Assembly (NCBI GenBank): GCA_951406725.2 | Contig: OX597827.1 | Span: 79,298,001 to 79,362,000 of the forward strand | From: Octopus vulgaris | Lineage: Eukaryota | Direction of reading: 5' to 3' | Length of the DNA: 64,000 nucleotides | Shown: positions 145 to 61,579 of the stretch, one piece after another | Position numbering within the stretch: the stretch's first letter is position 1 | Layout of the letters: each line of letters begins with the position of its first letter | Program-made: the position numbers and the translations under genes | Notes under the pieces: generated by a model | What the model saw: the letters and a program-made list of their open reading frames with translations, nothing else | The model's database searches: none | What the model was told of the DNA's origin: nothing

Positions 145-3114
145 CTATGTTGGCTGTAGATAGGTATCTTGTATTTGTTGTCCCTTTAGTATTGTGGCTG
201 CAACTGGATTGTCATTGGTATATTCTGCAAAATATCAAATATACAAACACAAATTACATTTCAACATAACAACTCCAATATATAAAGATAGAAACATTGA
301 TCTTGTATTACACTAAGCATAACATTATATATTGTCCTACAGTAATAAAGGCAATTACATTTATAAGTTATGTTTTGATAAAAGTTACCTGGTTCTGCAG
401 GTATCTCATCATATGGTTTAGTCTTGCCATTACTCTTGCTAGCTTCTCTGTCCTTTTGGGATGTTAAGGTGTCACTGTTGTAAGACATGATGGAACTGGT
501 GCGACGTCCATGACTATAGATTGAATCACATCTCTGTGGATAGTAGAAAGTGGAATCCTGTATAAATACAAGTTTAGATCACTTCTAATAAAACAGTCTG
601 AGGGACTGAAGTTGAGTTTTTTGTAGTAATAACTGTACATAGATGAATAATGGATAAAATACTTCTACCTTCATAATAATAAGCAAAAAAACATCAATTA
701 TCCAAAATAATATTTACCTGAGGCACAGGTGGAAGTCTCCTTTGTGTTGTTGAGAATTTCCATTCATCTGGTGTCTGTTCCATCTCCAGAAAAAACTGAC
801 TTTTAGATTTTATTGTCTGAAGATTTCGGTTAAATATCTCTTCTGCATTTCTTGTTATTGCAACAGGATTGTTAGTCTGATACAGTAATTGTCTCATCTC
901 AGTCTGAGAGAGAAAGTTGGGATTCTCTGCTGTTGTGGGTGAGTTATTTGTGTGATTAATACATCTGAAAACACACAGTGTTATGGACACTACAATAGCC
1001 ACAGATAGTATTACAGCTGCTGCTACAATGATAATTATCCAAGTCATATTCAGGTCGTGACCAGATTGGAATGGCACAGCAGTCAACATTGGAGATGTAT
1101 CATTACTAACAAACAGTGTTAGTATGATAGCAGTTGTTGCTGATTGAACTGGAGTACCACCGTCTTTCACTATAAACTGCAGCTCATATGTTCCTGCATC
1201 ATTTTGGTAAACTGTGCGAGAGAAAGATAACACACCAGTGTGTGAGTTCACTGTAAACAGGTTTTTATCATTGGATCTCAGTATTCCATATGTGAGGAAA
1301 GCATTGTTTCCAGTGTCTTTGTCAGATGCTCTCAGAATTGTGATGTCCTTCTTACTGTGTGGATGGTAGTGGACATCGAGATTGTAAGGGTCATTATTAG
1401 GAAACGTAAAATACGGAGCATTATCATTTTTATCTAGAATCTCAATAACAATATTGGCAGTGTCATTGAGAGAAGGTGTTCCATTATCTTTCACTAAAAC
1501 CTTGAACTTATAGATGTCTTTCATTTCTCGATCTATTGATTGTGATGTAGAAATAAATCCATATTTGGTCAGTTGGAAAGGAATGTTATCATTGTTGTTA
1601 TCATTGATGATAGAATATGTAAGTTGGCCTCCATCTCCAAGATCAGGGTCTGTAGCATTGATGAAGCCAATAGGGAAGTCAACTTTCTGGTTTTCATAGG
1701 TGAGGAATTGGAATGTCTCTTTGGTAAAATGTGGTTCTACATCATTGACATCAGTTACTTTGACAGAGAAATATTTTTTACTTTCTAGTTGAGGTGACCC
1801 CATGTCATGACACACAACAGATACTTTATAGTGGTCCCTTATTTCTCTGTCAAGATGACCCTTAACAATCATTTTATATTCTTTAGAATCTATTTTGGCA
1901 AGTTTAAACTTATCATGTTTTAAATCACAGATAACCTCACCATTAGGTCCACTATCAGTGTCAGTGACCATAACATAAGCTATAAAACTATCTACTTCAC
2001 TGTCTTCTGGAACTGCTGCTGAGCTCTCTGATAAAGGAGATACAAAATCTATGTTTATCAATGGAGCAGTATTCCTATTATTAATCACATAAATGTGAAC
2101 TCTAGCTACTGTCTTTAGAGGAGGGTTGCCGCCATCCTGCGCTTCAATAAATAATTTATAAGATTGCCTTTTACTGAAATGAAAATTATCATGTAAAAAT
2201 AAATCTCCAGTTTTCTTATCTAAAACAAAATATTTCTGGATATTTTGAGATGTTTTATGGTTGAAATGATAAGAAATCTTTCCATTGTCTCCAGAATCTC
2301 GATCTGTGGCTTTTAAAGTAAGAATTGGTAAATGTCTTTGATGTGAATTATTTATAGAGATATTATAGAATTTCTGTGAAAATACAGGTGTGTTATCATT
2401 GACATCTGTCACAGATATGTGTACCTTGAGTGTAGCTGTTTTGGCAGGGTTTCCTCCATCTTTAGCTTCCAGTGTCAACATATATGAATATTTTAGTTCC
2501 CTGTCTAATTTATCTGCTAAAGTCAGTTCAGGTATAAAAATACCATCCTGTTTTGTGACTGAGAGAGAAAATGGTTCTCTTTTACTTTTTTTAATCATAT
2601 ATGTAATTTGAGAATTCTTTATTGAAATATCTTGATCAATGGCATTTAAAAGTGAGATTTTAGTCCCTTTAAATTGGCTTTCGAGAAATTCAATTTCAAC
2701 TTCATTCTGTGGAAACTCTGGAGAATGGTCATTGATGTCTTCTATTAATATTTTTATCCTTAGAATCTTCATAAACGTTTTTCCTTTCCTCACTGCCACC
2801 TTCACAGTTCTAGAACATTCCTTGTTGTATGTACACAGAGACTCAGCATCCAGTGTTTGAGTAGTGTATAGTTTTCCTGAGTTGGTGACATTAAATAAGT
2901 GAGAACCACTCTCGACTGTCCTTTGTAGTTGTGTAAATGTAATGAGAGTGTGTTGTTGATGCGTGAGAGGGTGTGATAAGTTGGAGTCAACAGCAATGTC
3001 TCCTATATAGGTGTGAGGTCTGTCTTCTTCCTTGACATGGTATGCAATATCTATGGACAGTACAAGGGTGATCAGTAAAGGTAGAAGACACAGTAGACCA
3101 ATATATTGTGTCAT
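145..3114 (-). CDS. Protocadherin g1 (signal peptide, 6 EC repeats, TM, cytoplasmic tail), ~873 aa; coding exons 3114-718, 533-389, 224-145
   Basis: Cadherin motifs (LDRE, DxNDN, DxD), Pcdh-type EC1 LDAESLCxxxxxC and a hydrophobic TM. Donor CAG|GTAAAT at 718/717, acceptor CAG|AGA at 534/533, donor CCAG|GTAACT at 389/388, acceptor TGCAG|AA at 225/224. The phases join in frame to EYTNDNPVAATILKGQQIQDTYLQPT*. Confidence 0.93.
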
Positions 3115-5141
3115 GTCTGGAATTCTTCATCACACTTTAGCAGGAGAGTTTTCTACAAAACACAACAGACATTGAAAGTCTAAATAAAATTCAATAAAAT
3201 AAACTAAAATAAAGCAGTCATTGTGTAGATGTTATTCATTGTACTTTGTTATATTCCCTGAAGCTAAACTTAAAACTTTAAACTAATAGTTTACAAACAT
3301 AACGTTATTGTTGCAGTTATACCATGCCTCCATCTAGCTGAGAACCAGACTTTGATATGTGATGTAAAGTGATGGTCTGAGCCAATGTAAGAACTTTTAT
3401 ATGGTCATTCTGTCTGTGGTAGTAAAAGGCAGCCCAACCTTTAAATCTGATTCTACAGTCTTACAAATAGATGAATAAACTTGATAAAGTAATCCTGAAT
3501 ATAATAAACCAGAAATGATGACAGAATGTTGACAGCTTGAATAATGCAGACTCTGACAAGGAAATATTAAAACCCTTTAAATTTACATCACAGAGAAAGA
3601 TTTTAGTCGTTGGAGATTAATGATATATACAATATGAAAACAACAGCAATTCTACTCTAAGCTGATGGTAGGTCTAATTCTACAATTAGACCTACCATCT
3701 AAGCTGATGGTAGGTCCTAATCAAAAGAGAAGTAAAATATATTGTGAAATTAATGAACAGTAGTCTCTCGAGATATTTAATTAATGAAGTTTAGGTTTGC
3801 AGAGCGAAAGATTAAGGACATGATAACCTAAATGTACTTTATTGTGTCTTGTTGGTTGGAATTCCTCTCTTTTGTTACCGTATTTCTGTTGGAATACATT
3901 GCTTTTGTTTCGATCAATTTCAAAACTACAGCAAAAATTTAGTAAAATAACTTTGTCAAAATGAATCTGGTGATTGGAACACAAATCAAGATGAAATTTG
4001 ATGGAAAGCTTTAATTTAAAGCACTTTAAGAAGGAAGTTAATATCATAAAACCTGGCACAATTGGAGGCAAGTTGGTATCAGAGAGGGTGAAAGACATTT
4101 GATAATAATATACCTGTTTCACAGAAATGTAGGATAAGTGTATCTAAGACACCTAATAACCTGGATAGAAGATGTCTTGTTGACTTATTTCACAAATAAC
4201 TGACAAAGAATAGATTATAAAATTATGTGGAAATACTTTACAAAAATGGGAATTATAAAATGGTGGAGTGATATGTTGATGGAAAAATATGTATAATTAT
4301 CTTCATGAAATATGCAGATATCTTTCTTATCAAATAAATTGTAATAAAAGTAATTTAATCCCTATTTACATATAACATTTAGATTTTATACATATAAGAT
4401 ATTTCTGTTATATTATATATAGTATTAACAACTGTAATAATGAAATGTTTGTTAATTTGTAGAGAAATGATATTATATCTGAATAATTCTCAATATTCAT
4501 CTTTTGTTGTCAGGATTAATATATTTTAACAACACATGACAATATAATTGCTTTATATATCACACTAAATATCTTAAATAACAAATCTACACGAAATAAT
4601 ATTGACCAACATCTTTACATAACTTGGCTTTGTAAATGAGCAATCGCATGTGTTGATCTAAATGGCCTCCAAATGTATTCAATGAGTTTCTTTGCCCAAG
4701 AAGTCGGGAAGACACTTAGCAAGAAATGTAGATGTAAATTGAAAGGAGGAAAATACATAATGATAATAATAATAATAATGATGGTGATGACGAGGATAAA
4801 TATTCTTGGTTTATTATATACAAAAAAATACACAATGGATATTCAGTAGGGCATATATATATATATGTAGATATATATCTATAAATATATGTATTTACAT
4901 ACACACACACACACACACATATATAAGGATATGAATGATCCGTTAGAGTTAATTAAAGCTAGAGAAAATTAGGATTTTATTAGGGATATATCGCGAGAAC
5001 AAAGATATGAACTATATCAACATACATTATCAACACCCAGTCTTGTTGGCTATCAATCAATGTTTTGTGATAGTTAAATGTTTATATATATATCTAATTT
5101 AGACTAGTTTAAACAAATAATGTGTACTATATATTGTAGCA

Positions 5142-5146
<5 letters not shown>

Positions 5147-5214
<68 letters not shown>
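5147..5214. repeat. (TA)n microsatellite
   Basis: Uninterrupted TA run. Many other (TA)n, (CA)n, (GA)n, (TAA)n and (CAT)n runs occur in the long introns. Confidence 0.95.
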
Positions 5215-5217
<3 letters not shown>

Positions 5218-5286
5218 GTGTGTGTGATTCAAAGACGTAATCCAGTTCAAAGTAATTGTATTACAATGACTACTGCAGTTCTTGTT

Positions 5287-5441
5287 GTTAATGGTGGAAG
5301 TGATGGCTAGATCTCTCGATCCTCCACTGTCCCAGTCCCTGTATATATACAACATGGCAGACATTTTAGATATTATCCTTACCCTGTCTTTCATTAGAAA
5401 CACAAATAATATAAATGTTATAATGAATATGAAAAGATAAT

Positions 5442-5479
<38 letters not shown>

Positions 5480-5886
5480 CTGCATTGTTTAATCCTTTAC
5501 TGTAGTTGTGTGTGATGGATGATGTGTATCCTGCTGTAGTGTTCCACTCCAACTGCTGCTGCTGCTGCTGTAGTGGTATTATAGTGGTACTGCTGCTGTT
5601 GTAGTAGTGTTCCTGTGTTACTGCTGCTGCTGCTGCTGTTCCTGTGTAACTGCTGATATAATAGTGTGACAGTTGCTGTATGTAGTGGGAGGTGAGATGT
5701 TAGCCAGATGCTGGTGTGTGCTAGTTACAACTCTATGTCCTCCACACACACACACACACAATTGTGTGTATGATGAACAAAGAAAAAAGCTATCAGCCTC
5801 ACTTTCAATATTGAAAGAAATATAGAAAATCTCTCTCATCCAATAGGAAATTACTGCAATGTTGTCTGTGTTACACAAACACATCA
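5287..5886 (-). promoter_or_regulatory. g1 conserved cassette: CCAAT box (5840-5844), putative first exon ending at donor 5480/5479, (GA)n and conserved intronic block
   Basis: About 600 bp, near-identical in all 8 units. Perfect donor CAG|GTAAGT. No minus-strand ATG from 5817 down to the last 6 nt of the exon. Confidence 0.75.
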
Positions 5887-6695
5887 AACAAGAGAAATGA
5901 TGTTAAACAGAAAGAACATCACATTTTTTTCTTCAACAAAACACTACATTACATATATTTGTATTAAACTATAAGATTTATAATAATATTTCTTGATAGT
6001 TGATGGGTTATTTATAACTTCACTATAAGAATACATATTCAGGATTCCTATTAGAAACAAAATGATTTTAGAAGAAGTCATCAAAGATTTCATTATTTAA
6101 GAAGTTCACATGATATTTTCTATGTCATATTTCATAAAATATAAAACATTTCAATTTCAATTTTTAAATGAGTAGATCATTTCAGTATGTTATGAATATA
6201 GGTGACAGCACTTTATTGCATTTTGTGGGCACCAACAGTTATTCATCTATACTGATATTAATCGATTAATAAAATTCAATATACACAGAATATAAAAGAT
6301 AAAGTGGTGTGAACAAAACACAAAATGGAAAAAAATGTAAAACCATGGTATAAGTTAGTATGAAACTAATTAATGGTAGAAGTGATATCAAACCAATAAA
6401 TACTATAACTGAAAATTCTAGGATGACCCTAATTAATTTATATATGTTTAGTGAAACTTCTATAGGAAAACTAAGAGTAAAAGAACTATCTTATAAAATA
6501 ACTAAAGTAATGTAGTCATTTCTTGTATTTCATGTATCAGAGATGTAAATTGGGAGTCATAGTAGATGCCACTGTAAGGCCTTTTATGTGTGATGTGTGA
6601 AAGAAACATAGAGTTGATATTTTTATATGAATATATAGTATTGTATGAGATTTGGTGTGAGAGAGAATCATTTAACAATAGTCATGGAACATCTA

Positions 6696-9600: not shown

Positions 9601-9792
9601 TTGTAGTTGTGTAAATGTAACGAGAGTGTGTTGTTGATGTGTGAGAGGGTGTGATAAGTTAGAGTCAACAGCAACGTCTCCTATATAGGTGTGAGGTCTG
9701 TCTTCTTCATTGACGTGGTATGTAATATCTGTGGACAGTGCAAGGGTGATCAGTAAATGTAGAAGACACAGTAGACCAATATATGCTGTCAT
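6696..9792 (-). CDS. Protocadherin g2, ~873 aa; coding exons 9792-7396, 7084-6940, 6775-6696
   Basis: Same domain motifs and splice sites as g1; large exon coding part 2397 bp. Confidence 0.93.
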
Positions 9793-10249
9793 GTTTGGAA
9801 TTCTTCATCACATTTTAGCAGGAGAAATTTCTACAAAACACAACAACAATACTTAAAGAGTAAATAAAATTTAATAAAATAAACTATAATTATAACCATT
9901 GTGTATGTATTATTAATTAAATCTGAAAACATTTCATTTGACTGAAGTGAACAATTTAAAAATGTCCATCCACAATATTTAGCTAGAGGTATATTTAGAG
10001 TAATTTTTAAAAACTATGATGATGTAATCACAATGTTGAGAATTTCTGAATTGATTAATGGCTTTGTTAAAAATTTATATTTACTGATATACTCAAATGG
10101 GACAACAAGTATCTTGAACTATATTGAAATTGCTTGTTACAACACTGTGACTGATAACAGAAACTCTATGGTAAATCCATATGCAATGATAATGATAATA
10201 ATAACAATAATAATGATAATAACAATAACGATAACAATAATAATAATAA

Positions 10250-10436
10250 GGATTGCTTGGAAAAAGTATGGGGAATTAGAGGACAGACTTGATGACATAC
10301 GGAAGAAGTTTAGGGACAGTAGAAAGTAGAAGGGGCATCTTCCAAGGGGACTGCCTGTCCCTACTGATCTTTGTACTGTGCTTGATACCACTGACACTGA
10401 TTCTGAGGAAAGCAAGAGCTGGGTATGTATTCAAAA
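10250..10436 (+). mobile_element. R4/Dong-like non-LTR retrotransposon, reverse transcriptase fragment
   Basis: Translates to LGTVESRRGIFQGDCLSLLIFVLCLIPL (RT motif RGIFQGDxLS); abuts a degenerate (TAA)n tract. Confidence 0.75.
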
Positions 10437-11542
10437 CTACAAAACTACAAATATTTAGGTGTGTTTGATGAAAAATGGCATCTGGCATACACAAATTCTG
10501 AAGGGAAAATGGAAACATTGTTATCACAGACTTAATAGGTGGATCAAAAGGTGTTGATAACTTGACACAGAATATTTTGTAGCATTACTAATCCAATATT
10601 TTCAAGAAATACTTTACATTAAACTTGAATTCAAATAATTTATTGAAAAACATTTCATTGAAACTTGACAGAGGGGTATAACACCAACAAAATAGATCAT
10701 AAAATGTTGTCTATTAGTTCACAATAAATTTTAATGATATATAGATAGGGATTATAAAATATTTCAGTGAAGGTTATGAATGAAAAAATTATCTACGAGA
10801 TATTCAGATCAATTTATCCAGGGAAATGTAATAAAAATAATTTAAATCACTATCTATATACAATACTTAGTTTTTATGTCATACTGCTACATATAATATA
10901 TTTGTTTTGTTGGGTTTTTTTTAACTAAATAACTACAATAATGTGAAGAATGATAGTTTGTAGAAAGAAGATGTTACTTTTTCTGATCAATTCTTAACAA
11001 ATCTACAACATTCATCTCTTGCTGTCAGAGTTAATATATCTTAACAACACATGACAATATCATCAGTTTATATCTCACACTAAATACCTTAAAATAACAA
11101 AACTACACTAAATTTTATTCATCAACATCTTCATAATAATAATGATGGTGATGAAATACACTTAGTTTATTATACACAAAGATATATAATGGATACCTAA
11201 TAAGTTATATATACATAGGGATATTAATGATCTGATAAAATTTCATTAAAAATAGAGAAAGATTTAGATTTAATTAGTGAATTAATTATGACAAAACAGA
11301 TATAACCTATAACGTACATTATTAACACCCGGTCTTATTGGTTATTAGTAAATGTTGTCTACAAATTGATTAATATATATATATGTCCGTCTACTTCAGA
11401 TTATATTACACCTATATTGCATACATAATATATAATAACAAAATATATAGTTTAATATCTCTTGTAAAATATGTGATTTTGACATGAAAATAATTGGTCC
11501 ATCAAGAAGTAATTGTATTACAATGTCTACTGCAGTTGTGTT

Positions 11543-11697
11543 GTTAATGGTGGAAGTCATGGCTAGATCTCTCGATCCTCCACTGTCCCAGTCCCCGTAT
11601 ATATACAACATGGCAGACATTTTAGATATTATCCTTACCCTGTCTTTCATTAGAAACACAAATAATATAAATGTTATAATGAATATGAAAAGATAAT

Positions 11698-11737
<40 letters not shown>

Positions 11738-12143
11738 CTGCATTGTTTAATCCTTCACTGTAGTTGTGTGTGATGGATGATGTGTATCCTGCTGTAGTGT
11801 TCCACTCTAACTGCTGCTGCTGCTGCTGTAGTGGTATTATAGTGGTACTGCTGCTGTTGTAGTAGTGTTCCTGTGTTACTGCTGCTGCTGCTGCTGTTCC
11901 TGTGTAACTGCTGATATAATAGTGTGACAGTTGCTGTATGTAGTGGGAGGTGAGATGTTAGCCAGATGCTGGTGTGTGCTAGTTACAACTCTATGTCCTC
12001 ACACACACACACACACAATTGTGTGTATGATGAACAAAGAAAAAAGCTATCAGCCTCACTTTCAATATTGAAAGAAATATAGAAAATCTCTCTCATCCAA
12101 TAGGAAATTACTGCAATGTTGTCTGTGTCACACAAACACATCA
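11543..12143 (-). promoter_or_regulatory. g2 conserved promoter/first-exon cassette (CCAAT 12097-12101; donor 11738/11737)
   Basis: Near-identical to the g1 cassette. Confidence 0.75.
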
Positions 12144-15900: not shown

Positions 15901-16062
15901 TTGTTGATGTGTGAGAGGGTGTGATAAGTTGGAGTCAACAGCAATGTCTCCTATATAGGTGTGAGGCCTGTCTTCTTCCTTGACATGGTATGTAATATCT
16001 ATGGACAGTACAAGGGTGATCAGTAAATGTAGAAGACACAGTAGACCAATATATGCTGTCAT
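12986..16062 (-). CDS. Protocadherin g3, ~873 aa; coding exons 16062-13666, 13373-13229, 13065-12986
   Basis: Same motifs and splice sites; exon-3 donor variant GTAATT. Confidence 0.93.
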
Positions 16063-18060
16063 GTCTGGAATTCTTCATCACATTTCAGCAGGAGAAATTT
16101 CTACAAAAGACAGCAAAGATATTTAATGCTTATGTAAAATGTAAACCAATTTATATTTATAAAAACGACTGTGACACTTCTATGTTTATCTGTAAAAATG
16201 CTCCATTAGTCCCAATTGAATAGTCTTCTCTTGTCTGATAATCTACAAGATAATCTCCTAATATAATAATGAGTATATTGTTTTCATATATTTGTGTATA
16301 TATATATATATATATATTTGTCCAAAATCATGCAGTAGGCATGAAAGGTATAGGGACAGGAGAGGAGAGAAAATAATAATTCAGTGAAGGAGAAGTAGTG
16401 AAAGTAATAGCCATGACTGAGGGGGAGTGAGAGAAAGTAATAGCAATGAAAAAGAAAGAGGAAGAGGCAAAGAGAGCATTGTGTATCTTCTACTATAATA
16501 ATACTCTTGTGTATTTATCTGTCCCAATATAGGAATGAGAAAGGAAGGGGTGATTCACTGATGGAAGTGGAATGGTGAAAAGTCAACAGTGAAACAAAAA
16601 TCAAACAGCGCTTCAAAACTGTGTGTGTATATGTATCTGCATGTAAAAGAGAGGAATGTGAAAGTTTGCGTTTGTGTTTGTGTAAAATATACTTATATAT
16701 TTAAGTGATTGTACATCTGTTTGTGTATGTTTATTTAGAAAGATACATAGAAGATAGAATTATAGACATATGCATTTATACACACACATATAAACAGAAA
16801 CACTTAAAAAGGAAGGAAGCGGATTGTGACAAAGTATAGAAAACCGCATTCGCTGCACACTGTCCTATTCATACATATAAATGTATGCATATGCACAAAC
16901 ACAGAACTGAAACACTGTTTGTTTTTCTTTCACCTTTTTATATATAAAATACTACAATTAGCAATCATTTTGGACAGCAATGGGCCATCTAGAAATACGT
17001 AACGAGAGTTATCTCCCTTGAGTAATTCTCCCAACTTTATCTCTACACACCTCATTTTGTGAATGGTAATCCTCTTCCCATAAGCCAAGATCATCTGTCA
17101 CCATTTACCCCACCCTTATGTATGCCTGACTTTGTCTCTGCCCCTGTGCATCGTTCTTCCACCCACTCCACCCCTCACTCCACATCCTCTTTGCTAGCAC
17201 CCACACCTACTTTCTCCACCTTCCCCTCTATCTGATATTTATAATTGACAAGGATTCCACAGTGTTCACCACTCACTGCATTTCCCTTAAACTCTATCTC
17301 TATCCATCTGCCACTCACCTCTCACATTACCACAGACTTACCTACCCAAGGTATGCTCTAACACATCTTCCCAACCATCTTCTTTCTACCATATAACTTT
17401 TTACAGCAACACACCTGTTCCAGTCCCTCTATCATACTTCAGCCTCTCATTACCTGGCATAAAGCCACTCCCCTCAATATTACTCACCCTTGTTTTTGTC
17501 TTGCAAGTCACTTGGTCATCTGGTGACCTTGCTAGTGCTGGTGCCAAATAAATAGCACCCAGTACACTCAGTAAAGAAGTTGGCTTTAGAAATGGAATCC
17601 AGACTTAGAAACAATACTAAAGCAGACACTGGAGTTTGGTGCAGTCAACTGGTTTATCACCATCAATCTCATGATAACATGGGAAATAATCATATGATGA
17701 TGATAATGATGATTATAGTATATATGTATATATAGGTAGTTTCAACATACCAGCAAATGATATATATCTATATATTTACATAGGTACAGTTACAGGTACA
17801 TATACATAAACAATTGAGTACATATGTACAACTATGTGTACATAGTGTATACACACATGTATGCATATAAATGTATGTGTGCATATATATATTTATGTTT
17901 GTACATATGTATGTATTATACATATGTATACATGCATATGTACATACATATGTGTATATATAGGTAGCTCTCACATTCTGTATTTCTAATGCTCACATCC
18001 TCACAAGAATTTTGTCCATCAACATCAACTAATACAATGTCTCAGATGAGATTATATATA

Positions 18061-18208
18061 TCATCATCATCATCATCATCATCGTTTAACGTCCGTTTTC
18101 CATGCTAGCATGGGTTGGACGGTTCAACTGGGGTCTGGGAAGCCAGAAGGCTGCGCCAGGCCCAGTCTGATCTGGCAGTGTTTCTACAGCTGGATGCCCT
18201 TCCTAACA
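18061..18208 (-). mobile_element. SINE family B fragment with (CAT)n tail
   Basis: (cat)n-cgtttaacgtccgttttccatgctagcatgggttggac...ggatgcccttcctaa. Recurs at ~33563, 51033, 58600, 59493 and 60095, and inverted at ~17520, 38250 and 42205. Confidence 0.75.
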
Positions 18209-18505
18209 CCAGAACCTGTCCAAGAAAATTTGCTCAATACCAAGTTACTGACACTATCTTTTCACTCATCATCAAAAATGCAGTAAACTAATGTTTCATC
18301 CATTGGAAAACTGTAACCAGTATCACTAATTTTCATTAATTGCAACATAAAATGTACAAAGAAGCCACAAACAGCTGTAACCATTTTGATTTTAAAGATA
18401 TTTTAAGGAGCAACCTACATATATATATACATATAGCAACCTACATATATACATATATATATATATATACACATTTATATACATATATATATATATACAC
18501 ACATT

Positions 18506-18546
<41 letters not shown>

Positions 18547-18565
18547 TTATATACATTTTTTGGGG

Positions 18566-18739
18566 AAGAGGGCTAGTTGATTATATCAACCCCAGTGTGT
18601 AGCTGGTACATATTTCTGCAACCCCAGAAAGATGAAAGGCAAAGTCGACCGTGGCAGAAATTGAACTCAGAATGTAGCGGCAGATGAAATACCGCTAAGC
18701 ATTTTCCCTGGTATGCTAACGGTTCTGCCAGCTCACCAC
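18566..18739 (-). mobile_element. tRNA-derived SINE family A
   Basis: Minus-strand A box (TGGCAGAACCGTTAG) and B box (GAGTTCAATTTC); homologous to 50138-50366. Confidence 0.8.
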
Positions 18740-18947
18740 TTTAAAGAAAAACTATAATAATGTGGTGTATGTTAATTTGTAGAAAGAAGATGAGATTATT
18801 TCTGATCAATTTTCAACATTCATCTCTTGTTTTCAGACTTGATATATTTTAACAACATGTGACAATATCATTGGCTTATATCTTGCACAAAATATCTTAA
18901 ACAGCAAACCTACACTAAATAATAATTATCACCAGTTTCTTAATAAA

Positions 18948-18978
<31 letters not shown>

Positions 18979-19377
18979 TTAAAAACATTTTTAGTTTTAT
19001 TAGAAAATACAAAGAAATATATAATAGATATTTCAAATAGTATATATATATATATATATTGGGATTAGCAATGTGCTAGAGTTCACTGAAGGTAGAGAAA
19101 GATAAGATTTAATTAGTAAATTATTATGACAAAAACAGATATACAATACACTGACATGCATTACTAACAGCCAGTCTTATTGGTTATCAGTCAATGTTTT
19201 CCGACAGTGAAATAAATATATATGCACCTAGTTTGGAATATATTAAACCATTATACATAAGAAATATCAGAGCAATATATACAGTTTAATATCTCATGAA
19301 TAAGGATTGATTCTGACGTTAAAAGACGTAATCCAGTTTGAAGTAATTATATTACAATGTCTATTACAGATGTTGTT

Positions 19378-19534
19378 GTTAATGGTGGAAGTGATGGCTA
19401 GATCTCTCGATCCTCCACTGTCCCAGTCCCTGTATATATACAACATGGCAGACATTTTAGATATTATCCTTACCCTGTCTTTCATTAGAAACACAAATAA
19501 TATAAATGTTATAATGAATATGAAAAGATAATAA

Positions 19535-19566
<32 letters not shown>

Positions 19567-19970
19567 CTGCATTGTTTAATCCTTTACTGTAGTTGTGTGT
19601 GATGGATGATGTGTATCCTGCTGTAGTGTTCCACTCCAACTGCTGCTGCTGCTGCTGTAGTGGTATTATAGTGGTACTGCTGCTGTTGTAGTAGTGTTCC
19701 TGTGTTACTGCTGCTGCTGCTGCTGTTCCTGTGTAACTGCTGATATAATAGTGTGACAGTTGCTGTATGTAGTGGGAGGTGAGATGTTAGCCAGATGCTG
19801 GTGTGTGCTAGTTACAACTCTATGTCCTCCACACACACACACACAATTGTGTGTATGATGAACAAAGAAAAAAGCTATCAGCCTCACTTTCAATATTGAA
19901 AGAAATATAGAAAATCTCTCTCATCCAATAGGAAATTACTGCAATGATGTCTGTGTCACACAAACACATC
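19378..19970 (-). promoter_or_regulatory. g3 conserved promoter/first-exon cassette (CCAAT 19925-19929; donor 19567/19566)
   Basis: Near-identical to the g1 cassette. Confidence 0.75.
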
Positions 19971-23700: not shown

Positions 23701-23897
23701 GTCCTTTGTAGTTGTGTAAATGTAATGAGAGTGTGTTGTTGATGTGTGAGAGGGTGTGATAAGTTGGAGTCAACAGCAATGTCTCCTATATAGGTGTGAG
23801 GTCTGTCTTCTTCCTTGACATGGTATGTAATATCTATGGACAGTACAAGGGTGATCAGTAAATGTAGAAGACACAGTAGACCAATATATGCTGTCAT
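20776..23897 (-). CDS. Protocadherin g4, ~873 aa; coding exons 23897-21501, 21164-21020, 20855-20776
   Basis: Same motifs and splice sites. Confidence 0.93.
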
Positions 23898-24280
23898 GTC
23901 TGGAAGTCTTCATCACATTTCAGCAGGAGAAATTTCTACAAAACACCAGAAACACATTTAAAGCTTATGTATAATTTAACCAACTTCATTCTATTTATAA
24001 TAATCATTATGAAACTTCTATTCCATTAGCTGCAATTTGTATAGTCTTCTGAGATCTGACAATCCTTAAGACCATACATAACGAGAGTTATCTCCCTCGA
24101 ATAAACGTTCCATCTTAATCTGAAATAGTAAACGTCATGCTTACATTGTTTTTCATTCTGCTTTTCCGTGAAAATTCAGTCTATTTTCAGAGTTAGCAAT
24201 TAAAAATTTCAGGTTTAATGTCGATAACTCCTGAACAGATTCACATATTTCTTAAAAAATATATATAAACTGAAAAAACG

Positions 24281-24487
24281 GTTCCAAATTTTGGCAGAAG
24301 GCCAGCAATTTCCTGGGTGGGGTTAAGTTTATTACATTGGTCCCAGTCTTCAACTGGTGCTTATTTTACTGAAAGGATGTATGGCACAGCCGACCTTGGC
24401 AGTATTTGAACACAGAATGTAATAACAGATGAAATGCAGCTAAGTATTCTGTCCAGGTTACTAATGAATCTGCTAGCTTGCCACCTT
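24281..24487 (-). mobile_element. Degenerate SINE family A
   Basis: Similarity by eye to 50138-50366 (actggtgcttatttt...gaaaggatg...tttgaacacaga...ctgctagcttgcc). Confidence 0.65.
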
Positions 24488-24859
24488 CAGGTATACTGAT
24501 GTATTGTAAACTGATATAGAAAAGATGAATACCAAAGTGAGATACTAAATATCTTGGAATTAAACTCAAATCGCTGAGCATTGTTTCCATGGCTGGATAC
24601 CCTTCTTGTTGCCAAACACTATACATTGAGTACTGGTTGCCTTTCATGTTGCACCTGCTCCAGCTATGCCACCAAGTAACTTATGGACAAGACACACACA
24701 CACACACACACCACATCGACATGTAACTAAATGTGTTGAGTGCTCATTCTTTCATTTGTTCTCTCTCGTGTATTTCTATGTATGCAGATATATTCTCTTA
24801 TTTGTTTCAGAACTGATTCTTTGTAAGCCCAGTATATATTCTATCATTCTCTTTTGCTG

Positions 24860-24922
24860 AACTCCCAAGTTACAGGGATGTAAACACATCAACATCAAAC
24901 GATGGCATGGGGACAAACACAG

Positions 24923-24961
<39 letters not shown>

Positions 24962-25118
24962 CGATAAGCTTCTTTCAATTTCCATCTACCAAATCCACTC
25001 ACAAGGCTTTAGTTAGCCCATGGCCATAGTAGAAGACACTTGCCTAAGGTGCCATACAGAGGGACTGAACCCAGAATCATGTGGTTGGAAAGCAAGCTTC
25101 TTACCACACAGCCATGCC
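24860..25118 (-). mobile_element. tRNA-derived SINE family C with internal (CA)n/(TA)n
   Basis: Minus strand starts AGGCATGGCTGTGTGGTAAG (A box) ... GGTTCAGTCCC (B box), followed by ACCTTAGGCAAG. Confidence 0.7.
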
Positions 25119-25462
25119 TGTATATACATACAGCTAGTTTGAACACAGGAACAAATGCACTGTACTTGAGAACATTTAATCAAAAATGAATTTCTAAAAG
25201 GATATCTCCTATGTCTATGCTCTGCACCCAATCTGTCCCTGACAAATCTCTCCTCTCATACAATTTACTTTCTTAATACCCATCCCTACCAAAAGCCATC
25301 TTCCCAACACCTTCACCTCCATCAATCTTCTGACTATATGTACATACATATATGCATATATAAGTAGCTCTTACATTTTGCATTTCTAATGCTCACATCC
25401 TCACAAGAACTTTCTCCATCAAACATCAACTAATGCAATAACCATGTCTCTGTTGATAAATA

Positions 25463-25508
<46 letters not shown>

Positions 25509-27812
25509 CTGTCAGATGAGTCAAATGCCATATAACATTAGTGACTGCCTGTAACATCCAGTCTCCCAGCCCCAGCACAATCCTATTTGCTTCAATTCAA
25601 CAAAACCTGTGATCAGGAAGTGAATATCTTAGACTGATTTCCTTTAATTTACAAGCTCCCTTTAACGAACATTAATTAGGAATGAAATAAATCAATAAGT
25701 CAAGAAATACATCTGTAGCAAGAGTCTCTCAGGACACCACTGAAAGGGGCAGCAGACACCAAACCTAGATGGACATAAGCTACGAGAAGCAAACAAGATA
25801 AGGGTAATAGATATGATTTTGGCTATAAAATATCTTGTGATGGTTGATAGAAAAGGGCTTCACTCAAAGGTCTGCTGTGTTCTCTATTAATGAACATTAA
25901 TTAAGAATAAATTAAATAGTTAAGTCAAAAACTACCTCTGTAGCAAACAAATCTCAGGACACCATTAAAAGAGGTAGCATTTGGTGGATGTAATTCACAA
26001 GGACAAGATAATGATAATAGATATTACTTATGATTGCTTCAGTTTACAGTTGAAATATTATTTTATTATTAAATTAAGAGTGGATGTACTGACTAAAATA
26101 TACATAAAATTCCATATAATTTCCTGCTTAATTGGAAAACGTAAACAAAAACCAAGTGGGAAATGTTAATAACAGTAACAAGTGAGATCATTTCAAGAAA
26201 TTAGGAAATCATCTCTCAGTGTTCATTTACATGCTCACAGCAAGGAATGTATAATGTTTGCATTAACTATTTCCCTGTTTCAGTCTCTTAGGCATCATCA
26301 GCATAGCATAGTCTAAAAGAGCATTCTCATCATTTGACAAAGTCATTGCATATAGAGGAAATGACTTATGAATAACTTTTCACCGTTATTATCTTCATAA
26401 TTAAAAGACAAGGAGATCAGGGAAATAATTCCAATGTGACAATGGCATCAAAGAGCAATAAATAAAGGTTTGATGCACTGAATGTTGTATACAAAATGGT
26501 TCTAAATAAATTGAAAATTGAAATGGAGAAAGAAACACCCTGGTGACAAAACATGCTACTCAGAAAATATTGTGAGAGCAAAGGAATAGGTCTGTCAGCT
26601 GAAACTAAACCAGAATCAATCCCATAAGAGAGTGTTGGCATCATGAAACTCCTCTTCTTAGGACTCTAATATTTGCTTCAGTTCAATGTGCCATTCTCTT
26701 ACTAGCATGTGAAAGTACAAGTAAACAAAATATCACAGACTACTTTACAAGTTCTTGATTAATAAAGGATAATTAGCATTAAATTAACTCATAAAGTCAA
26801 GAACAATCTCTACAGCAGAGTGAAATGAGAGGGAAAACAACCATGAAAACTTTGATAACCAGATGTAAAATGTATCAATGAGAATTACAAAAAGTCTCTT
26901 ATTAATGGGAGAGGCCAGAAAATCTCAGTGAATTATCAGCCAACTTAACAAAAACTATATATTTTTTAATTGCTATATATATACAAATATACATTTTTCA
27001 ACAAATATAACATGAAAAGCTCTAGTTGACTTCTCTCACTGTCAGCTGCTTCATTTTAGGCCAAGAAAAATATTTCTTCTAATCCTAAAAAGTGTTACAA
27101 ATACATTTAGAGAATACTGAAAACAATTAATAGAATATTATTGGTATAAAATTTTGTACAAATGGATCAGAGGATGTTGTTAAACTTGATAGAGGATATT
27201 TAGAAAACTTATTCATCCAATATCTTTAAGGAATATTTAATTTGTTGAAAAGAAAAAAAAAAGGATTATTAAAATTTGACATAAATAACACAGAATAATT
27301 TATAAAATAATGTTGAATATTTCACAATATATCTTAAAGGTACAAAAATAGGGACTGTAAAATATTTCAGCAGAGATTGTTTATAAAAATTTATCTATAA
27401 TTATCACCAAGAAATATTGAGATCTATTTACTAAGCATAATAATAATAATAATAATTTAACCCCATTTAGATATATTTTGTAGGCTTTATATCATACTGC
27501 TACGCATAATATAATTGTGATGTCTATTACTTTGTAGAAAGAGGATATCATTTCTGATCAATTCTCAAAAAATTTACAAAGCTCATTGATTGTTGTCAGA
27601 GTTAATATATTTTAACAACACAGGACAATATTGTCAGTTTATATCTCACAACAAATATCTTAAATAACTATTCTACTATTCTAAATAAATCAACATCTTA
27701 AAAATAACAATAATAATAACAAAATACACTTTTCTTTAATTGCATACAAAGAAATGTATCATAGATATTTAACAGGGCAGGTATTTATCTATCTATCTCT
27801 TTATCTATCTAC

Positions 27813-27859
<47 letters not shown>

Positions 27860-28199
27860 TATATAAAAGGATATTAGTGATCTGTAAGAGATTATTCAAA
27901 CTAGACAAAGATTAAGATTTAAGTGAATTATTATGACAAAAAAAATATAAACTATAATAACAGGCATTATTAACACCCAGTCTTACTGGCTTTCAATCAA
28001 TGTTTTCTAACGGTTAAATAAATATATATACACCTAGTTTGGACTATATTAAACCAATATTATATATAAAATATATCATAGCAATATATATGTATATAGT
28101 CTAATATCTCTTGTTTAATGTTGCCTTGAGTGATTCCAACATTAAAAGAAGTAATCCAGATTGAAGTAATTGTATTACAATGACTACTGCAGTTGTGTT

Positions 28200-28799
28200 G
28201 TTAATGGTGGAAGTCATGGCTAGATCTCTCGATCCTCCACTGTCCCAGTCCCTGTATATATACAACATGGCAGACATTTTAGATATTATCCTTACCCTGT
28301 CTTTCATTAGAAACACAAATAATATAAATGTTATAATGAATATGAAAAGATAATAAAGAGAGAGAGAGAGAGAGAGGGAGACTTACCTGCATTGTTTAAT
28401 CCTTCACTGTAGTTGTGTGTGATGGATGATGTGTATCCTGCTGTAGTGTTCCACTCCAACTGCTGCTGCTGCTGCTGTAGTGGTATTATAGTGGTACTGC
28501 TGCTGTTGTAGTAGTGTTCCTGTGTTACTGCTGCTGCTGCTGATGTTCCTGTGTAACTGCTGATATAATAGTGTGACAGTTGCTGTATGTAGTGGGAGGT
28601 GAGATGTTAGCCAGATGCTGGTGTGTGCTAGTTACAACTCTATGTCCTCCACACACACACACACACACACACAATTGTGTGTATGATGAACAAAGAAAAA
28701 AGCTATCAGCCTCACTTTCAATATTGAAAGAAATATAGAAAATCTCTCTCATCCAATAGGAAATTACTGCAATGTTGTCTGTGTCACACAAACACATCA
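28200..28799 (-). promoter_or_regulatory. g4 conserved promoter/first-exon cassette (CCAAT 28753-28757; donor 28387/28386)
   Basis: Near-identical to the g1 cassette. Confidence 0.75.
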
Positions 28800-32900: not shown

Positions 32901-33076
32901 GTAATGAGAGTGTGTTGTTGATGTGTGAGAGGGTGTGATAAGTTGGAGTCAACAGCAATGTCTCCTATATAGGTGTGAGGTCTGTCTTCTTCATTGACAT
33001 GGTATATAATATCTATGGACAGTACAAGGGTGATCAGTAAATGTAGAAGACACAGTAGACCAATATATGCTGTCAT
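29973..33076 (-). CDS. Protocadherin g5, ~874 aa; coding exons 33076-30677, 30361-30217, 30052-29973
   Basis: Same motifs and splice sites; 1-codon insertion in EC2 (large exon coding part 2400 bp). Confidence 0.93.
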
Positions 33077-33989
33077 GTCTGGAATTCTTCATCACACTTT
33101 AGCAGGAGAAATTGCTACAAAAGATAAAAATATTATGTAGAATTAAAACAAAATAAGGCATAAAAGCAAAAACTACTTTGTAAATATTATTTCTATCCTC
33201 AAATATATACCATCAGAATCATCAGAACTATTTAAAATATGTCAACTTTTCTCTTCTGATAACAGTTACAGCTGTCTTTGTTGTGACGACGTGGCTGAAT
33301 GGATGATAGGAAACAAAAGCCGTAGAAAAGTGAAGTCCAAAAGTACCTGAACATTGAACTTCTACTGCTAGAAGTGCAATGCTGAATTTAAAAATATATT
33401 GATAGAAGACATCCAAGTACTTTTCTAAGGAAGATAATGAAACCAGTTAGTGTGACCGAGTTCATACATCTGGTCAGTGGACCATGTTTCACTTGGCATG
33501 GCTTCTACATCTACATTCTAAACATCTTATGGTTTATTTATAGGGAGTACTGAGTACATTTTATCATCATCATCATTTAGCATCTGATTTCCATGCTAGT
33601 ATGGGTTAGATGGTTTGACTGGAACTGATAAGCTGGAGAGATGTATCTGTTTCTAGTCAGATCTGGTTTGGTTTTTACAGTGGATGCCCTTCATAACATC
33701 AACAATAAAGGAAACAAGTATATAAATAAAAGATATTTTTTGCATAATCTGTTTAAGGAGAGATAGTACATATTTTTCAAAATCTATTCTCCTTTTATTT
33801 CACTATATTGTCTATAGATATTGAAATAAACTCATATGTAGGTTTTTCTGTCATGGGTAAAAAATGAACTACATGAAAACATGAAATAAAAACAAAAAAC
33901 AAACTTAAAGTGAATTGAATAAAAACAAAATCCATGCAGTCTGAAAATGAAGGACAAGACTGAATACAGGTGGGAAGCAAAAAATTGAG

Positions 33990-34530
33990 GAGCTAAAGGA
34001 GTAGATCTACTTGGTGTATAAAATGGAAATGTGTCACAGACATGGATGTTGAAATCTCAAGGAGTATGAAGGTAGGATGGAAGGTATTTACTTTGATAAC
34101 AAAACTGGACAAACCTCTACAAGCCTGTCTCTTCAATAGCATTGACCTAGCTGCACACGTATATCCAAATGAGACATGAGGTACTATGGAGAGGGATAAG
34201 TATTTCAATTAGCTATGAGACAACAAAGGGTCATGGAAAGATCCATGCTTGGAGAGCATATCTGAAATGGGAAGATATGAGACTGGAACAGAGGAAAAGA
34301 TGTATTTGCTGAACACTGACACACAAGTTCCAGTGGGGTGGATGTGTCACAAGGTTCACAGTGGACTTGTGCAGTTGCTGAGTGATATCCAAGATATGAG
34401 AAAAAAGGCATTCAGAAAGCTTTCACAATGATAAGAAGATAATTTAGTTGAACAATTTGGGACAACAAGGGAAGAAGGATGCAATCGAGAAAGAATTGGA
34501 AGTGCATTGTGACCAGTGGTGTTAACATCT
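33990..34530 (+). mobile_element. Degenerate RTE-like LINE 3' fragment (shorter homolog at ~41930-42195)
   Basis: Purine-rich decayed coding sequence (MDVEISRSMKVGWKVF..., QQRVMERSMLG) resembling the post-RT region of RTE LINEs. Confidence 0.55.
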
Positions 34531-35777
34531 GACTGATACTGTGAAACATATATTGATACATTTTACTTTGCAGACAAATTAGTGTTTCTAACAGCCTGAC
34601 ATTCTTTGGAAAGGAAGAAAGCTTTGAATGTTTCAATAAGCTGAGTAGACCACCAGAGACACAAATAGACTGAAGAGTTTGGTGAATATAGGAGCTAATT
34701 CAGGAGTTCACAGATGGAAGGAGATGGAAGAAACACAATCAGGGTGTAGTCACTTGGGTTGAAGTGGTGAGAAGAGTTTACACAATGGTCAATAATTACA
34801 CTTGACTCTGGTTGGTGTTGAATGACTGTATGACTCAGGTGGTAAAGTACTGGACAACCAGCAGAGAGGTCAGTGGTTCAAATCCAGTAGAGAAACTGGA
34901 TGTCAACACCCACTTCATTAATCTATGTAATTCAGAGAAGGTTTACCTAAGTGGCTGGTAACTATTTCATATGAAAAAGGAACTAAATAAATTTGAGGTT
35001 CAGACTGAAGTTAGTAACAATATAACTACATCTTATTTCGTCTGGTGGATGTAATTTAGGATTAACAATTAGAGAATGAAAACAGTTCTATGAGATTAAA
35101 GTAGAACTTAATGAAAAATAAATTGTAATGAAGTTATTATGTAATACTGTGGGGGAAAATCTAATAACAGGAGCTAGAATTTAGAAAGCTAATCATTTGG
35201 GAAATGTCACATGGATAAAGGATATTGTGATGGTTTAACCAATATTTTAAAGGAATATTTTATATTAAACTTCAAATGTAATAAAATGTTGAAAATATGT
35301 TGATAAAAATAATTATTAAGACCTAACACAGTGGTATTAATAACAAAGACAGAATACTTTATAAATTTATGTGGAAATATTTTACAAAGATATTTTTAAC
35401 TAGATACAAAGATGGGGATCATAGAGTAGTGAATTTTGTTGATGGAAAAAGATGTATTAATTATCTTTATGAAATATGTAGATCTCTTTCTAATTGAATT
35501 AATTGTAATAAAATTTATTTAATCCTTATTTACTTACAACACAAAGATTTTATACATAAAAAAATATTTCTTTTATATTATATTTAGTGAAGAACAACTA
35601 CATTAATGTGATGTATGATGGTTTGTAGAAAGACGATGATATATTTCTGATCAATTCTCAACATTCATCTCTTGTTGTTAGAGCTAATAGATTTTAACAA
35701 CACAAGACAGTATCATCAGTTTATATCTCACAACAAATAGCTTAAATAAATCTACACTACATTATATTTATCACAAT

Positions 35778-35849
<72 letters not shown>

Positions 35850-35986
35850 ACATTTTGAGTTTATGATATACAAAGACATGAAAAATATTTAACAGTATGT
35901 ATGTATGTCTATATCTATCTGTCTGTTTGTCTGTCATATATGACAGACAAACAATGTTTGTCTACATATATCTATCTATCTATATA

Positions 35987-36023
<37 letters not shown>

Positions 36024-36044
36024 ATTTTTTTTTTCTTTATTTAT

Positions 36045-36190
36045 TTTCTCTCCTTGTTTCTTTCTGTGGAAGAGTGTAAGCTCGAAACGTTAAAGACTTT
36101 TCCACTTCCCGAGCGTTAAACTAATACATCTGTTAGTTGTCTACATCACTTGTCTTTGTCTTTTGTTTCTTTGTGAATTCTCCCCCTATA
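36045..36190 (+). mobile_element. Short Penelope-like repeat fragment
   Basis: gaagagtgtaagctcgaaacg motif, flanked by (TA)n on both sides. Confidence 0.4.
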
Positions 36191-36457
36191 TATATATATA
36201 TATATGCTGACATCGGTTTGAGTTCATTAAAGTTAGAGAGAGACTAAGATATAATTACTGAATTATTACGACAAAACAGATATAAACTATACTGACATAC
36301 ATCATTATCACTATATTGAACAATTATGTATAAGATATGTCATAGCAATGTATATAATTTAATATTTCTTGTATAACGTTGTCTTGTGTGATTCCAACAT
36401 TAAAAGACGTAATGCAGTTCAAAGTAATTATATTACAATGTCTACTGCAGTTGTGTT

Positions 36458-37043
36458 GTTAATGGTGGAAGTGATGGCTAGATCTCTCGATCCTCCACTG
36501 TCCCAGTCCCTGTATATATACAACATGGCAGACATTTTAGATATTATCCTTACCCTGTCTTTCACTAGAAACACAAATAATATAAATGTTATAATGAATA
36601 TGAAAAGATAATAAAGAGAGAGAGAGAGAGAGAGACTTACCTGCATTGTTTAATCCTTCACTGTAGTTGTGTGTGATGGATGATGTGTATCCTGCTGTAG
36701 TGTTCCACTCCAACTGCTGCTGCTGCTGCTGTAGTGGTATTATAGTGGTACTGCTGCTGTTGTAGTAGTGTTCCCGTGTTACTGCAGCTGCTGCTGCTGT
36801 TCCTGTGTAACTGCTGATATAATAGTGTGACAGTTGCTGTATGTAGTGGGAGGTGAGATGTTAGCCAGATGCTGGTGTGTGCTAGTTACAACTCTATGTC
36901 CTCCACACACACACACAATTGTGTGTATGATGAACAAAGAAAAAAGCTATCAGCCTCACTTTCAATATTGAAAGAAATATAGAAAATCTCTTTCATCCAA
37001 TAGGAAATTATTGCAATGTTGTCTGTGTCACACAAACACATCA
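36458..37043 (-). promoter_or_regulatory. g5 conserved promoter/first-exon cassette (CCAAT 36997-37001; donor 36641/36640)
   Basis: Near-identical to the g1 cassette. Confidence 0.75.
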
Positions 37044-40700: not shown

Positions 40701-40952
40701 AGTGTATAGTTTTCCTGAGTTGGTGACATTAAATAAATGAGAACCACTCTCGACTGTCCTTTGTAGTTGTGTAAATGTAATGAGAGTGTGTTGTTGATGT
40801 GTGAGAGGGTGTGATAAGTTAGAGTCAACAGCAATGTCTCCTATATAGGTGTGAGGTCTGCCTTCTTCCTTGACATGGTATGTAATATCTATGGACAGTA
40901 CAAGGGTGATCAGTAAATGTAGAAGACACAGTAGACCAATATATGCTGTCAT
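37773..40952 (-). CDS. Protocadherin g6, ~874 aa; coding exons 40952-38553, 38163-38019, 37852-37773
   Basis: Same motifs and splice sites; large exon coding part 2400 bp. Confidence 0.93.
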
Positions 40953-42691
40953 GTCTGGAATTCTTCATCACACTTTAGCAGGAGAAATTGCTACAAAAGA
41001 CAACAAAAATATTTAAAGCTTAAGTAGAATTAAAACAAAATAAAGCATAAAAGCAAAAACTACTTTGTAAATATTATTTCTATCTCCAAATATATACTAT
41101 TAGATTCATCAGAAATATTTAAAATGTGTCAACTTTTCTCTTCTGATGACAGTTACATCTTGGGTGTGATGTGGTGGCCGAATGGATGATAGGAAAGAAG
41201 AAACAGGGAACAGTAAAGACCAATGTACCTGACATTCCACGATAGTTTCAATATAGAACTGCTAGAAGTTCAATGTTGAATTAAAAATATATATTGATAG
41301 AGTTCAGTCAAGTACTTTTCTCCGGAAGGTAATGGAACCAGTTGGAGTGGCTACCTTCCTACACATAGGCAGGGAAACACACTTCACTTGCCACGGTTTC
41401 TAAATCTACATTCTTAACAGATTATGGTTTATACAGTTCTATATTTAAAAGATGAGGAATTATGTACATTATTTACATTTGACAGATATTTGTCCCCATC
41501 TTTGTTGTTAACACAACGATTTGGCTGATATAATCTCCAGCCTTCTTTCCTCAAGACACCTGATGAAGGCTGGGGGGGTATACCAACTGATCTTTATATA
41601 TTTATAATGGAAATAAATATCTTGCAAATACAATAAAGATACATTTTTTGTATGATGTGTTTTAGCAGACACCGCAATAAATTAAAAACAAATTCAGATA
41701 GTATATATGTTTGTATGTCTATTCACCTTTTATTTCACTATATTGTCTATGGATATTGAAATAAACTCTTAGATAGCGTTTTTTTTTATTTAAAAAAAAA
41801 ACGAACTACATGAAAATAGGAAAAAAAAAACAACCTGAAAATGAACTCCATGAAAACAAAATCCATGCAGTCTGAAAATGAAGGACAAGACTGAATAGAG
41901 GTGGGAAGCAAAAAAATTGAGGAGCTAAAGGAGTAGATCTACTTGGTGTATAAAATGGAAATGTGTCACAGACATGGATGTTGAAATCTCAAGGAGGATG
42001 GAAGGTATTTACTTTGATAACAAAACTGGACAAACCTACTACAAGCCTGTCTCTTCAATAGCATTGACCTAGCTGAACATGTATATGCAAATAAGACATG
42101 AGGTACTATGGAGGGGGAAGAATATCAATTAGCTATGAGACAACAAAGGGTCATGGAAAGATCCATGCTTGGAGAGCATATCTGATATGGGGAGATCAGT
42201 CAAAGTAACCTACCCATCCATGCCAGCATAGAAAACAGATGTTAAATGATGATGATGATGACAGAATAGTTTATAAAATTATGTGGAAATATTTAACAAA
42301 GATATCTTTTACTAGATAGAAAGATTGAGATTAGAAAATGGTGGAGTGAATGTTGATGATGGAAAAATATAATTATCTTCATAAAATATGTGGATCTCTT
42401 TGTTATCAAATTAATTTAATCCCTATTTTCATATAATATGTAGATTTTATACATGCAAAATAATTTTGCTATGTTACATTTAGTAAAGAACAACTATAAT
42501 ATGATGACTGTTAGTTTGAAGAAAGATGATGACATTATTTCTGATAAATTCTCAAAAAAATCTACATTCATCGATTGTCGTCAGAATTAATATATTTTAA
42601 CAAAACATGACACAATCATCAGTTTATATCTCACACAAAATATCTTAAATAACAAAATTATACTAAATTATATTTATTGTCATCTGAATAG

Positions 42692-42746
<55 letters not shown>

Positions 42747-42747
<1 letters not shown>

Positions 42748-43334: not shown

Positions 43335-43617
43335 AATAATAATAATAATAATAATTTATAGGATTGAGGTAACTCCTCCAGTAGGTATACAGAAGCAAAA
43401 ATAAGAAGAGCGCTATTGTTATCAAGTGAACAATATTTCGGCATCTAGTGTGACTTCCACAAGTTCAAAAAATAAACTTTGCTTCTGTATACCTACAAAA
43501 GGAGTTACCGCAATCCTATAAAATATTACCAAAAATGAAGTAGATTGACATGTTTATTTTTTGAACCTGTGAAAGGTACACTAGATGCTGAAATACCATT
43601 CACTTAATAATAATAAT

Positions 43618-61537: not shown

Positions 61538-61579
<42 letters not shown>

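Follow-up and report, generated by a model that had tools for sequence, protein, structure and literature searches.

In this work, we describe a 64,000 nucleotide stretch of the Octopus vulgaris genome (contig OX597827.1, positions 79,298,001 to 79,362,000, hereafter the window), which lies within an array of protocadherin genes arranged head to tail on the minus strand of C14, and the short open reading frames found upstream (uORFs), likely built by splicing, whose stop codon overlaps the start codon of its genes. The eight genes of the window, g1 to g8, belong to a subfamily of 23, and the nearest named proteins are the protocadherin beta-15-like proteins of Octopus and Argonauta. Each gene has a non-coding exon 1, then a large exon in which a 38-nt leader precedes the bulk of the coding sequence, and its own pair of tail exons. 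As in cephalopod clustered protocadherins, these are tandem full genes featuring a signal peptide, cadherin repeats, a transmembrane segment and their own tail exons. The array resembles the clusters described in PMC9068888 and PMC6339937 (here and below, citations refer to the accessible parts of the papers), in that multi-exon genes lie head to tail in chromosome-scale arrays, whole genes are duplicated, gene conversion homogenises them and no constant exons are shared; first exons, leaders and uORFs are not mentioned in those parts.

The tail-exon joints are present in RNA contigs from 4/4 and 3/4 runs, and splicing is local. A vertebrate-type organization, with variable exons and constant exons shared downstream of the array, was ruled out, since two own tail exons are found in each subfamily gene. 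Similarly, exon 1 could not be assigned to the upstream gene, either as a coding exon or as a terminal one: that gene has its own stop and an AATAAA ahead of the block, RNA depth between the two is near zero, and the long open phase-1 frame is interrupted by a stop in g6.

The features, all on the minus strand, are given below; the g1 leader, the g1 ATGA and the uORF spans of g3 to g6 are read from the sequence.

5480..5912 (-): g1 block of some 430 nt with promoter and non-coding exon 1, rich in CA/CAG and nearly the same in 25 genes; start site predicted
5480..5495 (-): g1 exon-1 end motif GGATT..CAATG-NAG, common to older protocadherin subclusters
5483..5485 (-): g1 upstream ATG, 6 nt before the donor, with A at -3
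5837..5884 (-): two more g1 upstream ATGs (5884, 5839), likely within exon 1; uORF lengths vary with (TG)n
3153..5479 (-): g1 intron 1, GT..AG, 2327 nt; junction fitted only for the g2 copy, by contig X6/20
3115..3152 (-): g1 exon-2 leader, 38 nt, uORF codons 3-15
3127..3132 (-): g1 TGA TGA in the main frame, including the -16 ATG (3130-3128), which opens a 33-47 codon out-of-frame overlapping reading frame
3111..3114 (-): g1 ATGA, uORF stop overlapping the main start codon
718..3114 (-): g1 main coding exon, encoding the signal peptide, the cadherin repeats, the transmembrane segment and the first part of the tail; phase-0 donor at its end
145..533 (-): g1 own two cytoplasmic-tail exons (533-389, 224-145); homologous g3 joints in RNA contigs
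9789..11743 (-): g2 uORF span, junction 11738-9830
16059..19572 (-): g3 uORF span
23894..28392 (-): g4 uORF span
33073..36646 (-): g5 uORF span
40949..44424 (-): g6 uORF span
48674..53897 (-): g7 uORF span, 35-nt leader; main frame broken at 452 aa in the assembly
57886..61585 (-): g8 uORF span; main frame broken at 594 aa in the assembly

The initial annotation had proposed that exon 1, ending at the donor AATGCAG/GT, is joined to the acceptor TTTTGTAG, 38 nt before the main ATG (35 in g7), and that the uORF so formed stops on the main start codon as ATGA. Donor, acceptor and overlap are found in 8 of 8 genes, at the positions first given, as is the TGA TGA lying in frame upstream of the main ATG, by which an N-terminal extension is excluded in the subfamily; g1, moreover, has no in-frame AG downstream of these stops. 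Genome-wide, a uORF of 14-15 codons, as made by the predicted splice and ending in ATGA, is present in 23/23 subfamily genes.

Four runs were used as contigs, and taken as RNA on the basis of an automatic guess and of their intron-skipping joints. Among the eight proposed junctions, that of the g2 copy (11738-9830) found support in 1 of the 4 runs, among the pieces listed: contig X6/20 aligns to 12118-11908 and to 9829-9710, and the 171 letters separating the two parts fit, to the exact base, the remaining 170 nt of exon 1 (11907..11738) plus the first base of exon 2 (9830). The support is arithmetic, with no alignment crossing the joint directly, because the repeat-rich exon-1 end was skipped in the alignment, and the 170-nt spacing is shared by 9/23 paralogs. 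With this one contig, the exon 1-exon 2 splice building the uORF is likely, and for the g2-type gene the spliced leader contains an AUG-initiated reading frame, as is canonical for repressive uORFs. RNA cover within intron 1, at 10257-10447, was considered as an extra exon and rejected: this stretch, about 89% alike and unique in 464 kb, is likely a transcribed repeat from elsewhere. Five of the six AGs within 90 nt upstream of the g1 ATG (window 3116-3203) give the same frame for the upstream AUG (uAUG).

The ATG at the exon-1 end had been described as the only one of that exon, which proved incorrect: in g2, RNA cover reaches at least 12143, and includes the ATGs at 12141 and 12096 (5884 and 5839 in g1). 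Three runs have a depth of 54, 949 and 7 at 12143, dropping to 0-3 beyond 12251; these two further exon-1 ATGs are therefore likely transcribed. A (TG)n repeat, of 7-12 units in 22/23 copies (window 5740-5760 and its copies), lies inside the uORFs of these two ATGs and shifts their frame, one being 32-39 or 72-75 codons long, the other 47-54 or 87-90. The exon-2 leader contributes an out-of-frame ATG at -16 in 23/23 subfamily genes and an ATG-TGA at -21 in 15/23. In three older group-A paralogs, the -16 ATG (window 3130, offset 22 from the acceptor) is in the main frame and is the first Met.

Exon-1 ends were predicted in 69 further genes, falling into five groups 44-64% identical in EC1, by relaxed searches and within-cluster homology; those of older group-A genes were found with a mismatch-tolerant pattern containing both the GGAT and the CAAT motif. 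The exact pattern GATTAAACAATGNAGGT has 34 matches in the genome, 33 of them in this array, and a tighter genome-wide donor pattern occurs in 136 places, 100 of which were listed; exon 1 was not found for most of the dispersed protocadherins sampled. A looser donor pattern has 1935 matches genome-wide, and most of those listed are the 14-mer CAATGAGGGTAAGT, likely part of an abundant repeat family. One group-D gene without a Met call and one orphan exon 1 (C14:79471085) were left out of the counts, seven group-D genes with doubtful acceptors out of the lineage set only, and the shifted exon end at C14:79180511, together with group D, out of the per-position count.

In 85 of the 92 genes, the donor has an ATG no more than 25 nt away, placed at -6 in groups A, C, E and F and close to -20 for group D. 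The upstream AUG at the exon-1 end is thus a family-wide feature, older than the window genes alone show. What follows it after splicing varies considerably: the uORF overlaps the main start in 25 genes (the 23 of the subfamily and 2 others), is a start-stop or has two codons in 32, is short in 22 and is a long overlapping frame in 3, while 3 genes have an in-frame extension and 7 no ATG. The ATGA overlap is therefore found in just 2 of the 69 paralogs outside the subfamily, and AUG-stop forms in 5 older ones. By lineage, any uORF stop falls on the main ATG in 6/40 leaders, where dinucleotide shuffles predict 4.8 (P 0.34). The base after the main ATG is an A in 14 of the 15 group-A lineages, so that a TGA there is nearly automatic. 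On the EC1 tree (46 rows, bootstrap not fully settled), the overlap needs 3 changes; the history of exon 1 may differ from that of EC1. A conserved phase-1 uORF (G-L-N-N), seen in 4 older paralogs, was also considered, but upstream spacing breaks its frame in others, and a 2-nt insertion in group C rules it out as well. The public O. vulgaris model P0057 begins at the exon-1 ATG of a group-C gene, which provides independent support for that junction.

Judging from sequence comparison, what is old and family-wide is the exon-1 end motif GGAT(T)..CAATG, within which most of the donor-proximal AUGs lie, the fate of the AUG differing by lineage. Over 20 exon-1 types, departures number 2, 0, 0, 0 and 1 along GGATT, 6 at the -3 base, 2, 0, 0, 1 and 6 along CAATG, and 11 at the next base. 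No peptide constraint is apparent across lineages, pN/pS being 0.82, 0.81 and 0.83 in the three frames of 9 alignable leaders. Other ATGs of the exon-2 leader are depleted in groups C/F/E (8 vs 12.5 expected, P 0.046) and in group D (4 vs 8.7, P 0.018), and not in group A (21 vs 19.7); overall, leader ATG counts are close to those of shuffles (observed/expected 0.95). Most older group-A exon-1 regions, and group C, have a TGACTCA or near match, presumably AP-1-like, some 120 nt ahead of the donor (C14:79.45-79.61 Mb); none was seen at the corresponding position of the subfamily.

The eight window genes are not independent cases of the overlap. The 23 copies differ little in exon 1 (diversity 0.009), in the 180 nt of intron 1 that follow the CT run (0.007-0.016), in intron 3 (0.018) and in the large exon's 3' half (0.005-0.018), whereas values rise to 0.3-0.5 in the remaining intron and flanking sequence and to 0.10-0.20 across the middle cadherin repeats; the 38-nt leader, at 0.088, is close to EC1 third positions (0.093). 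Homogenisation of non-coding tracts points to gene conversion at the DNA level, and for this reason the identity of exon 1 is uninformative on selection for its ATG. In 25 genes of C14:79.19-79.40 Mb (including window 5480-5912), promoters and first exons are 95-100% identical, with one at 90%, which raises the question of paralog choice; in this set, coding diversity is highest in the middle cadherin repeats, and the 3' halves hardly differ. Two genes at C14:79394456-79377848 have diverged signal peptides together with the subfamily exon 1 and 3' half, suggesting conversion tracts which cross gene boundaries.

Two further indications of frame-keeping had been advanced, and stand only in part. 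Among the 17 variants found in 22 copies (g7 being left out), 8 are synonymous in the uORF frame, where a fraction of 0.25 is expected: the excess is weak (P 0.04, uncorrected for the three frames tested), and the lack of stop codons among these variants is unremarkable (P 0.40). The 3-nt indel of g7 (35 vs 38 nt) is indeed the sole indel, but the main frame of g7 is broken in the assembly.

Sequence considerations lead us to regard the subfamily uORF as probably, if by a modest measure, an ordinary repressive uORF, with the protein made by leaky scanning. We infer that scanning ribosomes would meet several uAUGs; some would start at the -44 AUG, which has an A at -3, terminate 15 codons later on the main AUG, and then be lost, so that protocadherin, made by those scanning past, would have its output dampened. 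As two junctions lie downstream of the uORF, such an mRNA is possibly exposed to nonsense-mediated decay as well. The exact ATGA overlap is likely the outcome of a single lineage, copied by tandem duplication and gene conversion, the contrast between 23/23 genes in the subfamily and 2/69 elsewhere speaking for this. In favour of the repressive reading is the retention of the uAUG in 85/92 genes while other leader ATGs are depleted in C/F/E and D. Where a uORF overlaps the main frame, the usual effect is repression, ribosomes getting past it by leaky scanning (PMC10275272); typical reinitiation is likely precluded when the overlap is of 1 nt (PMC5972666), and conservation is stronger for uORF start codons than for the peptides they encode (PMC7889888). 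uAUGs are depleted in 473/478 eukaryotes (PMC7889888), and their long retention here therefore suggests selection for this spot.

Several observations weigh against a repressive uORF with an incidental overlap. Exon 1 and the acceptors outside g2 are predicted from homology. An exon-1-end ATG overlap is found in 3/17 lineages versus 1.1 expected (P 0.11), two diverged neighbours keep an open uORF frame with leaders of 38 and 44 nt, and the 8/17 synonymous variants count for the overlap itself. Loss of the ATG needs 7 changes on the EC1 tree. Counts bearing on selection for the uAUG are, finally, mixed: set against its presence in 85/92 genes, the G of the ATG is the least conserved core base of the motif, departing in 6/20 exon-1 types as the Kozak -3 base does, and, being less kept than its flanks, is more in line with a binding site than with a start codon.

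Such a site is the strongest rival. The conserved unit may be a DNA or RNA protein-binding site, GGAT(T)-N3-7-CAAT, which we take to resemble a K50 homeodomain core beside a SOX core, with the AUG a passenger of little effect on output; we regard this as a candidate to be kept in view, clearly less probable than repression. GAT and AAT hardly vary, unlike the G of the ATG as said, and AAT is kept in genes which have no ATG and many changes in neighbouring bases; AUG fates look unconstrained, and leader ATGs are, overall, about as frequent as in shuffles. The G is still kept far better than the next base (6 vs 11 departures), however, CAATG occurs without GGAT in 25/25 group-D genes, and two C-type exon ends have an ATG without CAAT. 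The pattern used to find older group-A ends, moreover, included both motifs.

The repressive reading could be extended, again tentatively, to the whole family: the shared ancient uAUG might act as a translational throttle, the sequence joined to it by splicing setting the dose of each subfamily as a start-stop, a short uORF, an ATGA abutment, a long overlapping frame, an in-frame extension or a loss. Start-stop elements are known as repressors (PMC13338717), so that ATG-TAG paralogs would be functional equivalents. As in conserved uAUGs (PMC7889888) and start-stop elements (PMC13338717), the AUG is kept while length, frame and peptide drift; unlike in these cases, the octopus comparison is across paralogs of one gene family, not orthologs, and the G is less kept than its flanks. 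If true, and given the near-identical promoters, this throttle would be a layer tuning paralog output in octopus neurons. For the regulation of the independently expanded cephalopod protocadherins, the exon-1 end motif with its upstream AUG provides, in most genes examined, a concrete and testable cis-element; no description of this element, or of uORFs or first exons of cephalopod protocadherins, was found among the listings of a literature search in which subscription papers were thinly covered and supplements fell outside. Repression by uORFs is an ordinary class of mechanism, and the ATGA overlap is likely, for the most part, an echo left by gene conversion.

The initial annotation had instead read the overlap as selected, cluster-wide control by coupled termination-reinitiation, ribosomes that translate the uORF restarting on the overlapping AUG and so setting subfamily output. 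This now seems improbable. The ATGA geometry, present in 23/23 genes and in the two diverged neighbours, is that of the TURBS (termination upstream ribosome-binding site) systems of caliciviruses and influenza B (PMC10275272, PMC5972666); the only indel is of 3 nt, the synonymous excess, though weak, is in favour, and a cellular precedent has been proposed for human SLAMF1 (PMC5972666). In the long isoform of SLAMF1 the stop of the last uORF overlaps the main AUG as UGAUG, and the octopus uORF is likewise short, one of several in its leader and ended by a stop sharing bases with the main AUG. It differs in the AUGA form, in spanning an exon junction and in lacking a UGGGA-like core, as known here from sequence: UGGGA, motif 1 of TURBS in the accessible part of PMC5972666, is absent from 23/23 subfamily leaders over about 460 nt. 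Moreover, the upstream frame of TURBS systems is a long functional one, not one of 15 codons, and the octopus geometry is not conserved among relatives, with 2/69 paralogs and a chance-level frequency by lineage (6/40 vs 4.8). The out-of-frame ATG at -16 would compete in 23/23 genes, and the copies are not independent. Frame-keeping across the cluster fails at the neighbour C14:79391017, which has the subfamily exon 1 and an unbroken main exon, but a frame-breaking 36-nt leader, so that the uORF ends 18 nt short of the ATG; going by sequence, use of a second AG lying 13 nt downstream would bring the overlap back.

It is rather unlikely, even more than reinitiation, that the exon-1 ATG is the relic of an ancestral protocadherin start (M-x joined to the large exon), displaced by a downstream ATG in most paralogs. 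Its fixed position, 6 nt before the donor, would fit, as would the 3 group-C genes in which it is in frame and open to the main frame, the start of P0057 with such an extension and the 15-residue extension, starting MK, of Argonauta P0069. Just 3 of the 92 genes are, however, of this kind, the majority of 95 new homologue N-termini listed start from the short signal peptide, and the N-terminal extensions have no evident shared sequence. A conserved peptide acting through the nascent chain is very improbable, since the varying almost only synonymously of Leu-Lys at codons 7-8 in the subfamily, and its recurrence in some older leaders, are outweighed by equal pN/pS in all three frames, radical changes within the subfamily and stops at codons 2-5 in many paralogs.

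Some features of the array are of minor relevance to the uORF. Seven of the 23 subfamily genes have a large exon broken in the assembly (window 47319-48677 and 56105-57889, and five outside), two of them interrupted near the same A run (452 and 453 aa); these are either pseudogenes or assembly errors, and the break in g7, one base in the A run, may be of the latter type. Intron 1 of g7 contains a two-copy tandem repeat of 247 nt (window 51190-51687). Orphan first exons and tail exons, without an adjoining large exon, lie at C14:79467626-79471085, 79166647 and 80005448-80006723.

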